Below, piece by piece: positions 17,740 to 23,563 of a stretch of DNA of 64,000 nucleotides (within the stretch, counting starts at the first letter, position 1; every line of letters starts with the position of its first letter). The notes below the pieces were generated by a model that worked only from the letters and a program-made list of their open reading frames with translations, made no database searches and was not told the origin of the DNA. The stretch comes from Salinivirgaceae bacterium (GTDB lineage: Bacteria; Bacteroidota; Bacteroidia; Bacteroidales; SZUA-534), in NCBI GenBank assembly GCA_024405635.1, contig JAKSOL010000007.1, forward strand, positions 63,981 to 127,980. The letters are read 5' to 3'. Position numbers and translations under genes: made by a program.

Positions 17740-17994
17740 TCAATCTAAGACAAGTAAAACATAAGCCATACCCAAATCGCCTTCGTCGATTATTATATTT
17801 TTCAATTGTTCGCCTGTAATACGACGTGTTTGCAAAGTTTCCCAACCAAACGGCAGTGTGCCGTCGTTGTTGGCTTGAATGTAGTTCACAGCCTTAACAT
17901 TAAGATCAGTTCTTGTTTCTGCTTCGATACAGAAGTAAACATTTTCGTCGCCTTTTATACGAAAAAAATGTCGTTGAATGTCTATTAGTTTCAT
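17740..17994 (-). pseudogene. Hypothetical protein in spacer 2, 3'-truncated by repeat 2
   Basis: The last residues VLLVLD* are encoded by the repeat itself. Confidence 0.6.
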
Positions 17995-18024
17995 AATTCT
18001 TGTTTTTATGTATTGTTTAGTTAG

Positions 18025-18213
18025 TTATTTGTTTATTTTTGCATCGAGTTCAGCGTCTTTATCGCTAAACAATGAATTGGCTTCCAACAGCGAGAGCAAT
18101 TGTAGCTCTCCCATCGCGGATAGCCAATTTTTAATTTTACGACTATCGTAATACCACACATTGTTAGTAGCAATAGATTGCTCTATTTTAGTACATATTT
18201 TATTGTCATTTTG
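18025..18213 (-). pseudogene. C-terminal fragment of a MuF_C/PBECR-like phage RNase-fold protein in spacer 2; absent from the ORF track
   Basis: Open frame from the repeat boundary: QNDNKICTKIEQSIATNNVWYYDSRKIKNWLSAMGELQLLSLLEANSLFSDKDAELDAKINK*; K..WL...G.LQL resembles MuF_C C-termini. Confidence 0.45.
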
Positions 18214-18249
18214 AGTTTTACATAATGCTCAAACTCAGACAAGTAAAAC

Positions 18250-18305
18250 TAATACAGAACAAGTACAACGAACTTGTTAACCGCATGCAGGCGGTGGTCT
18301 TTTAG
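18250..18305 (+). pseudogene. 3' tip of a hicB-like gene in spacer 3
   Basis: Near-identical reverse complement of 20687-20742, encoding IQNKYNELVNRMQAVVF*. Confidence 0.75.
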
Positions 18306-18382
18306 GACTTAATCAACATTAAGGCGGTGCTGCATTCACCGCTTTTTTTTTGCTTTTAAAAAAAATTTTGTAATTTTGTAGT

Positions 18383-18471
18383 GCTTTATAAGCATCCCTG
18401 GACTCGCTCCGAGATTGGGTTTGTGTCGAAAGGCTCATACCACCAAAGCCTAACAGTGTTAGGCTTTTTTT
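18383..18471 (+). ncRNA. Candidate structured sRNA convergent on a toxin gene (copy in spacer 3)
   Basis: TAATTTTG -7 box at 18371-18378, GAAA-capped stem 18418-18441, terminator 18445-18471; covaries with the copy in spacer 6. Confidence 0.5.
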
Positions 18472-18701
18472 GTTAATGACGAGTTTGTTTTGATGACATT
18501 ATAGCCGTCGTCAAAGTAATAATATACCTTTATTTTATCTATATGCCACAAATTGTACAATGCGTTGATAGCCTTATCTGTATCAATACCTCTTTCTAAG
18601 CATTGCAACACGATTTCAGCCTTTTGATGATTTATGGCATAACGTGCTTTTTTTTCAATATTACCAGTTCCTTTGGTTTGTTTCAAATCTGCTGGAATGC
18701 C
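18459..18701 (-). pseudogene. C-terminal fragment of a CdiA_C-like (PD-(D/E)xK, tRNase-type) toxin domain in spacer 3
   Basis: GIPADLKQTKGTGNIEKKARYAINHQKAEIV...; homologous to the ORF ending at 20508; cut by repeat 4. Confidence 0.6.
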
Positions 18702-18736
18702 GTTTTACATAATGCTCAAACTCAGACAAGTAAAAC

Positions 18737-19148
18737 TTACAATACCCTTTACAGTGATGTTTTTTATGGTTGCACCGCTCGAATACCCGAATAATCCGAT
18801 ACTGCGTGTTTCAGCCGAACTGTCAGCAACATTCATATTCGAAATGGTGTGGTTGTTGCCGTCAAAAACACCTTTAAACGGATTCCTTGCCTCGCCAATG
18901 CTAAACCACGGTTGATTGTTCAGGTCGATGTCCGCAATAAGTTTATAGTGCAAAGTATCAAATCCCTGTGTTCCGGCACTAACAACATACGACATAAACG
19001 CCAGTTCGTTAGCGGTTCCAATAATATATGGCGACTCTTTGCTGCCATCACCTTCTGTGAATTCTTCCATGGCGCCTTCCCATGCGTCTGCCGCATGAGT
19101 GTTAATCACCGCCAACACCATGACGATGCTAATGAATGTAATCTTTCT
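18737..19148 (-). pseudogene. N-terminal fragment of a secreted GLUG-motif surface protein; fills all of spacer 4
   Basis: Signal peptide RKITFISIVMVLAVINTHA (apparent start Met missing), GDGSKESPYIIGTANEL, FKGVFDGNNHTISN, GLFG; the frame runs into repeat 4. Confidence 0.75.
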
Positions 19149-20610: not shown

Positions 20611-20686
20611 TACAAAATTACAAAATTTTTTATAAAAGCAAAAGAAAAAGCGGTGAATGCAGCACCGCCTTAATGTTGATTAAGTC

Positions 20687-21082
20687 CTAAAAGACCACCG
20701 CCTGCATGCGGTTTACAAGTTCGTTGTACTTGTTCTGTATTATTGCTTTCTGCTTGTCCGATACTGGTACAAGTTTACGTTTGTATTTGCGCATCATTGC
20801 TGCGTTTAGACCTATTTCCTTGGCGAATGCTGTGGCGTTGATAAATGGAAATTGCTCAAAGAACCCAGATATGTCGTACACGTATTCTACTGCGATATTG
20901 TCACTATACCAATCTGGGTATTTCCCTGTTTGTTCCATGTGGTATTTGGCTTGCTCAACCATAACTTCCTCGAAGCATGTTTTAGCCTCTTGTTCTGTCA
21001 TGCCACTGCCGTACACGCCTTGCGCATCGTTGGTGTAAATAGCAAAACCTCCGTCTGCGCCCCTCTCAATAACTGCTTTCAT
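20687..21082 (-). CDS. HicB-like antitoxin with C-terminal HTH; complete, in spacer 6
   Basis: KAVIERGADGGF...G.G.T..EAK..F; YVYDISGFF..FPFINATAFAKEIGLN...MRKY. Confidence 0.85.
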   Translation of the reverse strand: MKAVIERGADGGFAIYTNDAQGVYGSGMTEQEAKTCFEEVMVEQAKYHMEQTGKYPDWYSDNIAVEYVYDISGFFEQFPFINATAFAKEIGLNAAMMRKYKRKLVPVSDKQKAIIQNKYNELVNRMQAVVF

Positions 21083-21151
21083 GTTCGTTTAGTTTTATCA
21101 TTGTTCTTTAAAAAAAAAGTTGAACTGCCCCCCACTAAGGGGAGCAGCGTT

Positions 21152-21167
21152 CTACTTTAGTCCTGCG
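21152..21167 (-). pseudogene. Last four codons (AGLK*) of a probable hicA toxin, cut by repeat 7
   Basis: rc = C GCA GGA CTA AAG TAG, directly upstream of a GC hairpin and hicB; HicA proteins commonly end in ...AGLK. Confidence 0.55.
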
Positions 21168-21203
21168 GTTTTACATAATGCTCAAACTCAGACAAGTAAA
21201 ACG

Positions 21204-22067
21204 GCTAACGCTTTTTCAAAGGCAATTACCGAGCGCGAAGTCCGCAAAACCGACAAGTATGCTGCCGAGATTAACGCCATTAAAGGCAAGTTGCTCGACT
21301 TTATCAACAAAGGCGCTGAAATTAAAGATTCGCACTTTGACAAATACAACGATATTGCTAACAAACAAGTGTTGCACCCATTTGTAAAAATTGTGCGTGC
21401 TTACATTAAGATTAACGGCAAAGAAAACGTTAAAAAGCAAGCCAACACCATTTGCACCAACATTGCAAATCTTTGCAAAGTATTGCCAGCCGATTTTGAA
21501 TTTATGGCACAACTTAAAGCAATTGAAAAAAGCTTAAACAACTACATTGAGGGCAAAACAGCAACGCCTAAAATGTTGCAAACCGAATTAAGCGGTTTAG
21601 GTCGCATTGCCGATAACGACGAAGATGCAAGCACTGCATATTTAGTTACTCTATCAAGAAAAGAAGTGTACGAAGATGGTTACAGAGATAGTGAAACATT
21701 GCTAAAATCTAACGACTACAATGCCGCTATTGCATTTTTTAATGACAAGAAAAAGCAATTGCAAAATATGGCAGAAGATGATGTTTGCGATTATGATTTA
21801 ACTATGTGGGTAGGCGACTATGAGGATATTGTAGAAGAAGAATTTGCAGATTTTATAGGAGAACCAACCGATGGTTATGCGGTTTTAATTAAAGACAGCC
21901 ATGGTTACTTAATAGAAAATGGCGATGGAAAAACCGAAAGGGATTTTGTGCTCGAAGATTGTAAGGTAAAATTAGTTAAGAAAGACGAATTAACAGACGA
22001 AATACAAATTAGTTTTGGATTTCCAAAACGATGGGTAAAATTAGGTTTAATACCTTCAAGATTATAA
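21204..22067 (+). pseudogene. 5'-truncated hypothetical mobile-element protein in spacer 7
   Basis: Long open frame beginning at the repeat boundary with no own start; acidic C-terminal half. Confidence 0.6.
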
Positions 22068-22245
22068 GATATAACTAACAACAAAAAAGCCGCGCTTAAA
22101 GGCGTGGCTTTTTTACTTTGACAAGGCAAAGTACCTTGATGGCGCAGGGGCGTTAATCAATATTTCAGCCTAACGACAACGTCCGAAACGTATTCCCTGA
22201 TTGTCCGATGCAAGTATAAGGAAAAAATATATACACAAACAAGAT

Positions 22246-22722
22246 ATGCGAGAAAAAATAATAGAATATATCAAAAAGGCGTGGAACGGCGAAAAATGCA
22301 GCAGATTGCTGGATATAACCAGTGCAATTGACATACAAGCACTGGAAGTTGCAAATAGTATAATTGATAAATTAAACGAAATACAAGATAGAGAAAAATA
22401 CGACCACATTAAAAAAGTTAAAATATATGCAGTCGATTTTGATCACACAAAAGAAAGACATTTTGGTGCAAATGAAACAAGGACAGACCAAATACCTTTA
22501 ACATTTGATGATATACCTTTGTTAGTCGATACTTTATTGTCGCCGCAATTGGTAAGATTAGGAACATTACGCCAAGATACAGGAGCAGGAATACACTTTA
22601 TTAGCCAGTTGGATAATGGTAAAATGATTTGCGTACTAATAAAAGTTAAGCCGCAAAAAGAAACTTATAAAAATAGAACAATATATAAAAAGAAATTAAA
22701 AGATGGAAGCAAGAATAGTTGA
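22246..22722 (+). CDS. PBECR3-like (Barnase/EndoU/colicin/RelE-fold) putative RNase in spacer 7
   Basis: DHTKERHFG..E...QIPLT.DD......L.SP pattern and C-terminal TIYKKK. Confidence 0.55.
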   Translation: MREKIIEYIKKAWNGEKCSRLLDITSAIDIQALEVANSIIDKLNEIQDREKYDHIKKVKIYAVDFDHTKERHFGANETRTDQIPLTFDDIPLLVDTLLSPQLVRLGTLRQDTGAGIHFISQLDNGKMICVLIKVKPQKETYKNRTIYKKKLKDGSKNS

Positions 22723-23563
22723 TTTTTATATGGTAGAAAACACCAATAAGGACAAACGCCTACGCTTAATGAAAATGAAAGCGCTTGCACTGGCTGAACC
22801 GCTTGACGGTTTAGCCACAACCAAGTGTGCTAACAATCAACCTGCCGATATTGTTAATCGATATTTGGATTTACTCGATAAGCCAACACGCGCCGCCGCA
22901 ATGGGCGTTTTGTCGTCGGTTGAGCGCTTTATTGAGCAAGCCGATAATAATTACCCTTATATGGCTGAATTTGCGGCTATGGCTGTAAGTTTGAGCGATT
23001 ATATTAACGAAGAAACGGCAACACCACAAATTGCAGCCATCGACCTTAATAACATTCATAAAATATCAGGCGTTAATGTTGATAATAGCGAATTAAAAGG
23101 CATTGTAAGTAGTAAAACGCTGCTTGCTCATCAGTTTGAGCCGCTGAACTTTGGTGGTAAGTGGAAACTGTTATTTGGTCGCCCAACCGCGCCTTTTAAG
23201 GTAATGGTACACGGAGCGCCCGGAAATGGCAAATCAACTTTTGCTATACAATTCGCTAAATACCTTGCCAGCAGCCACAAGTTGCGTGTATTGTATATTG
23301 CTAATGAAGAGAGTTTTACATACACCTTTCAGGAGAAACTTATGCGCCTGAACGCAATAGACGACAACCTGAAAATAGCCGATTCGCTACCTGATAACTT
23401 TGACGATTATGATGTAGCGTTTTTCGATTCAGTAAACACAATGAAACTCGATATTGACGATTTACGACGAATATTCAAACAAAACGACAAAACTTCGTTT
23501 GTGTTGATTTTTCAAAACAACAAGAAAGGTCAATTTAGGGGTTCGCTTGAGTGTTTTACATAA
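22703..23563 (+). pseudogene. RecA/RadA-like P-loop ATPase of a mobile element, 3'-truncated by repeat 8
   Basis: Walker A GAPGNGKST, VLYIANEE, Walker B AFFDSV, K.GQFRGS; the stop codon (..CFT*) is supplied by the repeat. Confidence 0.75.

Follow-up and report, generated by a model that had tools for sequence, protein, structure and literature searches.

Gene-sized inserts between CRISPR-type repeats beside a cas1-cas2 module in a Salinivirgaceae bacterium

Cas1-Cas2 is known for integrating DNA whose length a fixed ruler sets at roughly 30 bp, and to our knowledge kilobase integration is known only in the transposon cousins of this enzyme pair, where it needs terminal repeats. What, then, is to be made of a locus in which cas1 and cas2 stand beside identical repeats separated by inserts of the size of genes? 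Such a locus lies in a stretch of 64,000 nucleotides of a gut Salinivirgaceae bacterium of the Bacteroidales (GCA_024405635.1, contig JAKSOL010000007.1, positions 63,981 to 127,980; hereafter the window, meaning the whole of that stretch), in which eight copies of a 35-bp repeat span 15817-23587 and bound seven inserts of 412-2350 bp. An original prediction, made from the sequence of this region, held that the inserts are arbitrarily captured fragments and not integron-type cassettes. The analysis described here makes it probable that a Cas1-Cas2 pair of type II descent integrates long, arbitrarily cut DNA with duplication of the repeat, giving a CRISPR-type array with no Cas9 in the locus, and that its usual insert is 0.17-2.4 kb and not a 30-bp spacer.

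The array and its inserts

The repeat, GTTTTACATAATGCTCAAACTCAGACAAGTAAAAC, is present in seven + strand copies with at most two mismatches, which start at 17726, 18215, 18702, 19149, 19974, 21168 and 23553, and 100 shuffles of the sequence gave an expectation of 0 copies at the same threshold. The eighth copy is the degenerate terminal repeat at the trailer end (15817..15851), in which 31 of 35 bases agree with the consensus by hand count. The copy next to it (17726..17760) carries two mismatches and the others are perfect (18215..18249, 18702..18736, 19149..19183, 19974..20008, 21168..21202 and the leader-proximal 23553..23587), and a leader of 50 bp (23588..23637) runs from the last of these to the stop codon of cas2, so that cas1 and cas2 adjoin the perfect-repeat end. 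Identical direct repeats, a leader beside cas genes and a degenerate far-end repeat are the features of a CRISPR array, but the spacers are far outside the short and regular lengths (about 25-70 bp) that such an array has. The array is called CRISPR-type here because its neighbours are cas1 and cas2, and standard CRISPR finders would overlook arrays of this kind because spacer length is capped in them.

The inserts are numbered S1 to S7 from the trailer end toward the cas genes; the window's own genome is denoted G000 and its contigs carry C-numbers. S4 (18737..19148, 412 bp) is 100% identical over 412 bp to G000:C14:45931-46342, that is, to codons 2-138 of an intact host gene for a surface protein with Glug and Flg_new repeats (Pfam), whose frame is 770 codons long from stop to stop and about 757 from the ATG. 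The ATG of the donor immediately precedes the first base of the spacer, which agrees with the original prediction that the GLUG protein had lost nothing but its initiator Met at the start. The identity stops exactly at both array repeats, the donor continues on both sides without microhomology, and the neighbours of S4 in the array are unrelated to the donor flanks. The check proposed beforehand, donor homology running past the junction and array homology stopping at the repeat, therefore gave the predicted picture on both sides of S4, and a donor carrying the 35-bp repeat, the observation named as fatal to fragment capture, was not what was found, the S4 donor being without the repeat.

The other junctions are similar. 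By homology, ten of the 14 insert ends lie inside genes (the trailer side of S2, both ends of S3, S4, S6 and S7, and the trailer side of S5, the weakest case, where positions 1-47 of the 65 of the DUF4160 profile are matched), three are intergenic (both ends of S1 and the leader side of S5) and one, the leader side of S2, is without assignment. Most junctions thus interrupt genes, as had been predicted, and this proportion matches random cuts in gene-dense DNA and argues against whole-gene cassettes. The frames described in the prediction are also there, namely those ending on stops inside the repeat, at 17740..18024 (−), 18705..19151 (−), 19169..19381 (−) and 22700..23563 (+), and those open out of it, at 18025..18228 (−), 18459..18704 (−), 19933..20508 (+) and 21093..22067 (+). 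The strands of the open reading frames (ORFs) in the inserts place genes in both orientations, and no shared motif was seen at the spacer ends among the inserts, nor, where a PAM would be sought, in the flanks of one exact donor (S4) and one 30-nt donor end; both points had been foreseen.

S1 (15852..17725, 1874 bp) contains a whole AAA_14/DUF4143 ATPase gene (16160-17506, +; Pfam) plus flanks. Just upstream of this gene, at 16020-16141, there are four tandem copies of a motif ending TACCGTCATTTTGA with 33-34-bp spacing, and the leader-side end of S2 (18203-18214) carries TTGTCATTTTGA, which resembles it. S2 (17761..18214, 454 bp) contains codons 1-78 of a large gene (−) of helicase type, such as mobile elements carry, and an upstream frame open from the repeat; the helicase-type homologue in locus L068 extends for at least 542 amino acids (aa), with AAA_34 and ResIII. 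S3 (18250..18701, 452 bp) is a reverse-oriented paralogue of 20273-20742 within S6 (20009..21167, 1159 bp), with 76% identity overall, and both ends of S3 are known to cut genes because S6 carries the same genes further. The non-coding core that these two inserts share (18250-18369 and 20623-20742) is 93% identical over 120 nt and the coding flanks about 74%, which suggests that the donor mobile element has a conserved non-coding element here; Rfam gave no match in it.

S6 begins with the N-terminally cut, CdiA_C-like end of a large protein (+), where phrog_23416 is matched at profile positions 270-390 of 459, and continues with a whole hicB-like gene (20687-21082, −) and the last four codons of hicA. 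The reduction of hicA to AGLK* noted originally is visible in the sequence, and a contig of sequencing run X4, from another sample, extends past 21167, the edge of S6, in frame as a HicA-like C-terminus. In S5 (19184..19973, 790 bp) a DUF4160 gene (−) cut at its C-terminal end is accompanied by a small + strand gene and a whole DUF2442 gene (−) (Pfam), and the leader-side junction is 7 bp ahead of the ATG of the last. S7 (21203..23552, 2350 bp) opens at codon 208 of a gene whose product has about 457 aa: the database protein P0122 (457 aa) is 100% identical over the first 140 spacer-coded residues and has 207 more residues upstream of the junction. Also in S7 are a complete gene of 158 aa and a P-loop ATPase that lacks about its last 40 aa, with a phrog_6891 match at profile positions 13-159 of 310 and a 218-aa phage homologue that supplies the missing end.

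The S4 donor, the S6 contig and the S7 protein all extend beyond the junctions, which bears out arbitrary fragment capture. The inserts are copies of arbitrary DNA, taken from mobile elements and from the host chromosome in either orientation and without homology of their ends to the repeat, and they stand exactly between duplicated repeats, copied with the donor left intact. Several derive from mobile elements, namely from their large polyvalent proteins and toxin-antitoxin loci. Intact genes in the inserts tend toward harmless ones, such as hicB without hicA, and this bias may merely reflect the survival of tolerable inserts. Searches of the array region 17761-23552 by blastn gave no match in phage and plasmid collections and, among 33 genomes of the family, only G000's own matches and short weak ones; tblastn of the S7 part called S7a against phages also gave none. 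Elsewhere in the genome, the non-coding interval G000:C33:64175-64410, between Rnf genes and a thioesterase-like gene, contains decayed pieces like S2 (85% over 115 nt) and like two separate parts of S7, and may have been left by a mobile element of the same kind or by a former array.

The array was further examined in Logan contigs and unitigs from four runs, X1 (the likely source), X2, X3 (from another study) and X4, where array parts without coverage in X2-X4 were not counted as absent, with the exception of S4, whose donor is spanned by a single-copy contig. In X1 the 412 bp of S4 make up a unitig with double depth and with the donor flanks as its loose ends, as much as 30 nt of repeat is attached to the sides of S5 and of S7 in independent unitigs, the junction S1-repeat-S2 is spanned, and the depth of the array (23-30) is the same as that of its flanks. 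In X2 and X3 the S4 segment lies inside long single-copy contigs, in donor context only. The stretch of repeat, leader, cas2 and cas1 in X3 shows 0 differences over 1025 bp, and yet in that run S1 is present with six differences, S5 stands between repeats with different neighbours, and there is no array copy of S4. Array content therefore varies between strains with identical cas genes, and S4 is recent, since it matches its donor at 100% and the X3 array lacks it.

The cas1-cas2 module and its relatives

The product of cas1 (23962..24819, −; 285 aa) is of the type II family, with matches to PF01867 (E 1e-30) and TIGR03639 (284 bits against a cut-off of 120), and its closest solved relative is 5xvn, a type II-A Cas1-Cas2. 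The product of cas2 (23638..23958, −; 106 aa) matches TIGR01573 weakly, aligns at full length with type II Cas2 and has profile matches to the solved Cas2 chains 6qxf and 5xvn. TIGR03639, the position in the tree described below and the Cas2 profile matches together identify the pair as type II Cas1 and Cas2. Housekeeping genes lie farther out, for a formyltransferase and a TPR protein to one side and for Vut_1 and QueC to the other, and no integrase or recombinase such as IntI was found by Pfam among the 10 ORFs flanking the array. G000 (2.66 Mb, rated 99.8% complete) has one Cas1; no TIGR01865 match, and thus no Cas9, was found in this genome, in the locus or elsewhere, and a k-mer scan of it found no conventional CRISPR array. 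A search for the anti-repeat of a trans-activating CRISPR RNA (tracrRNA), by blastn-short of the repeat against the whole window, gave no complementary match above 10-12 nt, although weak ones could escape it. Rfam over 15000-25500 gave a single chance-level miRNA match and nothing else, and folding gave terminal pairing in three of four repeats with mixed z-scores, so no conserved structure is claimed. At G000:C8:646-805 (locus L007) a solitary repeat with one mismatch precedes a leader-like sequence and a piece of cas2 covering roughly its final 75 bp; no cas genes follow, and GNAT acetyltransferase genes lie on the other side. This segment, 84% identical to window 23553-23713, appears to be a second copy of the module that has decayed.

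In a tree of 50 Cas1 rows, from which L030 (a broken cas1), the duplicates L009-L012, L032 and L038 and the distant partial L035 were left out, the long-spacer loci form one clade with 100/99 support, nested in the Bacteroidales type II-C Cas1. The clade takes in 116 of the 117 top database proteins (FastTree, node support 0.77) and comprises at least 116 protein clusters at 90% identity. E147, H204 and E219 of Cas1 are invariant. According to PMC6008519, E149, H206 and E221 are the active sites of the type II-C Cas1 of Riemerella, a system that takes up 30-bp spacers and one of 31 bp; the three invariant residues appear to correspond to these. Changes specific to the clade are modest: an 8-residue deletion near the C-terminus of Cas1 in five of six rows and, in four of seven, replacement of the Asp at the N-terminus of Cas2. 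Between G000 and its relative G032 the ratio of nonsynonymous to synonymous substitution (dN/dS) is 0.072 for cas1 and 0.076 for cas2 at a dS of 0.33-0.45, and this strong purifying selection argues for use of the module.

Relatives of Cas1 were sought among 61 relatives, 401 genomes of the order, species-genome and metagenome collections and three further families. Wherever a locus has a Cas1 of the clade and enough flank, its 35-36-bp repeats are separated by long spacers. Counting that of the window, nine arrays, from eight genomes or contigs, lie beside a Cas1 of this clade or share repeats with arrays that do. Their spacers are 572, 233 and 598 bp in G032 (Cas1 94% identical to that of the window); 516, 296, 852 and 385 bp in L037 (54%); 558 and 2252 bp in L034, an Alloprevotella bin (49%); 409, 232 and 342 bp in the array upstream of cas1 in G181 (55%); 246, 176 and 585 bp in the orphan array of G181 on C7, with no adjacent Cas1; 30, 984, 190, 2076, 435 and 1175 bp in G932 (52%); 31 and 617 bp in G937 (57%); and 453, 217, 618 and 165 bp in G870 (54%). 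The median of the 34 complete spacers is 453.5 bp, and 32 of them measure 165-2350 bp, two 30-31 bp and none 32-164 bp. The original suggestion that integration proceeds without a length ruler is therefore upheld by the window inserts but not by the clade, in which a ruler mode seems to persist beside the long mode.

The relatives also share the habit of cutting genes: the spacers of G032 include an LPD3 domain frame open from the repeat, the start of a lipoprotein and a CdiA_C-like gene, and spacers 1 and 3 of G870 are paralogues, 79% identical, with different end points. The 2252-bp spacer at L034:11863-14114 holds nearly the whole of a CstA-type transporter gene (474 aa) and a short element that is multi-copy elsewhere in that genome, and another multi-copy short element surfaced in G430 in the search for self-donors. 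This search found no self-donors for the spacers of G181, G032 and G430 in those genomes, and the 31-nt canonical spacer of L129 had no exact match in viral contigs. The orphan array of G181 (L109, G181:C7:5546-6692) is a second, cas-less one whose repeat is two bases off the cas1-linked one. The distance from the cas2 stop to the first, or presumed first, repeat is about 45-50 bp in 13 loci, which share the same compact architecture. Contigs often break off at such arrays, in six of these 13 loci within about 400 bp of the first repeat. Five further loci, whose first repeats were placed by position only, end about 90-375 bp past the presumed first repeat with no second repeat (four run on for about 90-165 bp, with none seen by eye, and L033 for about 375 bp), and one contig stops at the presumed first repeat itself. 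As a control, 44 loci with a Cas1 at most 47% identical were taken, leaving out the clade loci, the window's own loci and L035; 35 have arrays with a period of 64-79 bp and nine have none within the 1.5-kb flank, and the array of G493 is conventional. Viral contigs yielded no member of the Cas1 clade, all 18 matches being at most 44% identical.

In the five cas-linked arrays that show a degenerate repeat, those of G000, G032, L037, L034 and G181 C25, this copy lies at the greatest distance from cas, and in the orphan array on G181 C7 it stands at one end. In the window, the two oldest repeats, at the trailer end, carry variant bases that are also present in the G032 repeat, and the copy at 17726, both of whose variant bases are common to it, looks from this comparison like an older form. 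The decayed far-end repeats and the variant bases common to the oldest repeats and G032 fit growth of the arrays from the cas side.

Competing explanations

Four other explanations of the window array were weighed against long-DNA integration by Cas1-Cas2. The nearest to it, which we consider unlikely, is that the locus is a remnant with aberrant activity: after the loss of Cas9 the adaptation module would lack prespacer selection and trimming, and the long inserts would be tolerated, functionless off-pathway products. No effector was found in G000, the self-derived insert S4 would be lethal with a working one, G032 has broken cas genes and G932 only partial ones, and orphan arrays and leader remnants occur, all of which would fit such a remnant. 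A dN/dS of about 0.07 in both genes at that dS, a clade of at least 116 protein clusters and a compact architecture unchanged in 13 loci speak against it and argue for long-term selection on the module without Cas9. It is less probable still, to the point of being improbable, that some other recombination system, encoded elsewhere, acts on the 35-bp repeats and that Cas1-Cas2 is a mere neighbour. The long inserts are tied to Cas1 by position, and S4 sits at an internal repeat, which would suit such a system. However, no recombinase was found among the 10 ORFs of the window flanks, nor among 10 ORFs in or beside L037 and L034, where the flanks are housekeeping genes that differ between loci; cas1 and cas2 are the only gene partners beside the arrays in the loci examined, and the S4 donor has no repeat-like site.

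An artefact is very improbable, whether a chimeric assembly at a shared repeat or the insertion of a 35-bp miniature inverted-repeat transposable element (MITE) into a continuous region. Every source is a short-read metagenome assembly, which would suit an artefact, but the architecture recurs in the eight genomes or contigs with different repeats and inserts, independent X1 unitigs support the repeat junctions of S5 and S7 and the S1-repeat-S2 order, and array depth equals flank depth. Moreover, the region was never continuous, because the neighbours of S4 are unrelated to its donor flanks. On the grounds of recurrence, unitig junctions, depth and S4 neighbours, both the MITE and the assembly error were rejected. 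Least credible of all is an integron-like or Xer-type array, in which whole gene cassettes would be exchanged by a tyrosine recombinase. Gene-sized inserts between repeated sites, an adjoining integrase-type gene and the presence of toxin-antitoxin genes recall such arrays, whereas the ten gene-cutting ends, the different cuts of related DNA in S3 and S6 and likewise in spacers 1 and 3 of G870, repeats that are mutually identical, unlike attC sites, and the lack of a tyrosine recombinase in the flanks scanned do not. Integron cassettes were rejected on account of the cut genes, the identical repeats and the donor without a repeat.

Several observations weigh against long-DNA integration by Cas1-Cas2 itself, or against too simple a form of it. 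The link between the long inserts and these two proteins rests on their conserved adjacency, seen in sequence. The two canonical spacers of 30-31 bp indicate that the ruler persists, and 'no ruler' is too simple. The recent S4 sits mid-array, which argues for integration that is not strictly leader-proximal, taking place at internal repeats, or for rearrangement. Among 10 other genomes with such a locus, Cas9 was found in four, on other contigs, and not in six; in those four, help in trans is possible. In G032 the cas1 (L030:1-701, 94% identical) lacks roughly its first 65 codons and contains an in-frame TAG, with cas2 and the array kept, and cas1 and cas2 of G932 match only partially. In addition, Logan contigs break at the repeat, so that the order of inserts is verified for S1-S2 only, and all the genomes are metagenome bins or draft assemblies.

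As to the mechanism of long-DNA integration, Cas1-Cas2 would attach a long fragment by both its 3' ends, one at each border of a single repeat, and gap repair would then duplicate the repeat, as in ordinary spacer integration and in the target duplication of casposons. The fragment would be left untrimmed, not cut to the ruler length of 30 bp, and this long mode would require looping of the DNA between its two held ends. DNA loops are costly below roughly one persistence length of duplex, about 150 bp. That no clade spacer falls between 31 and 165 bp in length suggests looping of the long substrates while they are held.

Known systems and possible function

The closest known system is the type II-C adaptation module of Bacteroidota such as Riemerella anatipestifer. 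The window locus resembles it in a Cas1 that passes TIGR03639, with the catalytic E/H/E kept, in the presence of Cas2, in a 35-bp repeat with G-TTT...AAAC ends, in a short leader beside cas2 and in a degenerate terminal repeat. It differs in having no Cas9 and no tracrRNA-like anti-repeat that could be found, in an array that tolerates a self-derived insert, in the deletion of eight residues toward the Cas1 C-terminus (five of six clade rows) and the replaced N-terminal Asp of Cas2 (four of seven), and in spacer length, 32 of 34 clade spacers measuring 165-2350 bp against the 30 bp reported in PMC6008519.

Casposons self-integrate via terminal inverted repeats and carry their own polymerase. 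They share with the window locus an integrase of the Cas1 family, the entry of kilobase DNA into a target and the duplication of the target sequence. However, the cargo in the window is arbitrary DNA that lacks terminal repeats and shows no common motif at the spacer ends, the integrase is of the type II Cas1 family and is paired with Cas2, and a CRISPR repeat serves as target; the window array thus has neither the terminal inverted repeats nor the casposase-clade Cas1 by which casposons are known. Integrons, with IntI and attC, are alike in their arrays of gene-sized inserts beside an integrase gene and in their toxin-antitoxin cargo. They are unlike the window array in that the latter has no tyrosine recombinase in its flanks, identical repeats, junctions that cut genes, both orientations, and inserts copied from donors without a recombination site; it does not consist of whole-gene cassettes each with its own attC. 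The components therefore belong to type II CRISPR adaptation, while gene-sized spacers, the absence of an effector and self-derived inserts differ from known descriptions. A literature search found no account of long-spacer arrays beside Cas1-Cas2, but subscription journals lay largely outside its coverage and an earlier description is possible.

A wider proposal, for which we see about an even chance, is that the module is a writer with two length modes, in which DNA of 30 bp would be held straight and DNA of at least about 165 bp looped. It would represent a widespread, Cas9-free clade of gut and rumen Bacteroidales (at least 116 clusters) that copies 0.17-2.4 kb of any sequence into a 35-bp site, keeps a selected library of fragments without guide-RNA nucleases and is at once a living casposon-to-CRISPR intermediate and a natural writer of long DNA. 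What the library does is the weakest step and a guess: it might serve as a collection of mobile-element fragments acting via RNA or via harmless parts that were captured, for example an antitoxin whose toxin is missing, and not as guide-RNA immunity.

If integration of long DNA by this Cas1-Cas2 is true, a CRISPR adaptation module can work without an effector and without a strict ruler, and the clade would offer a testable system for the transition from casposons to CRISPR. Furthermore, long DNA may be what this integrase writes into its fixed site in nature, and it would then be a compact two-protein candidate tool for the site-specific writing of long DNA.

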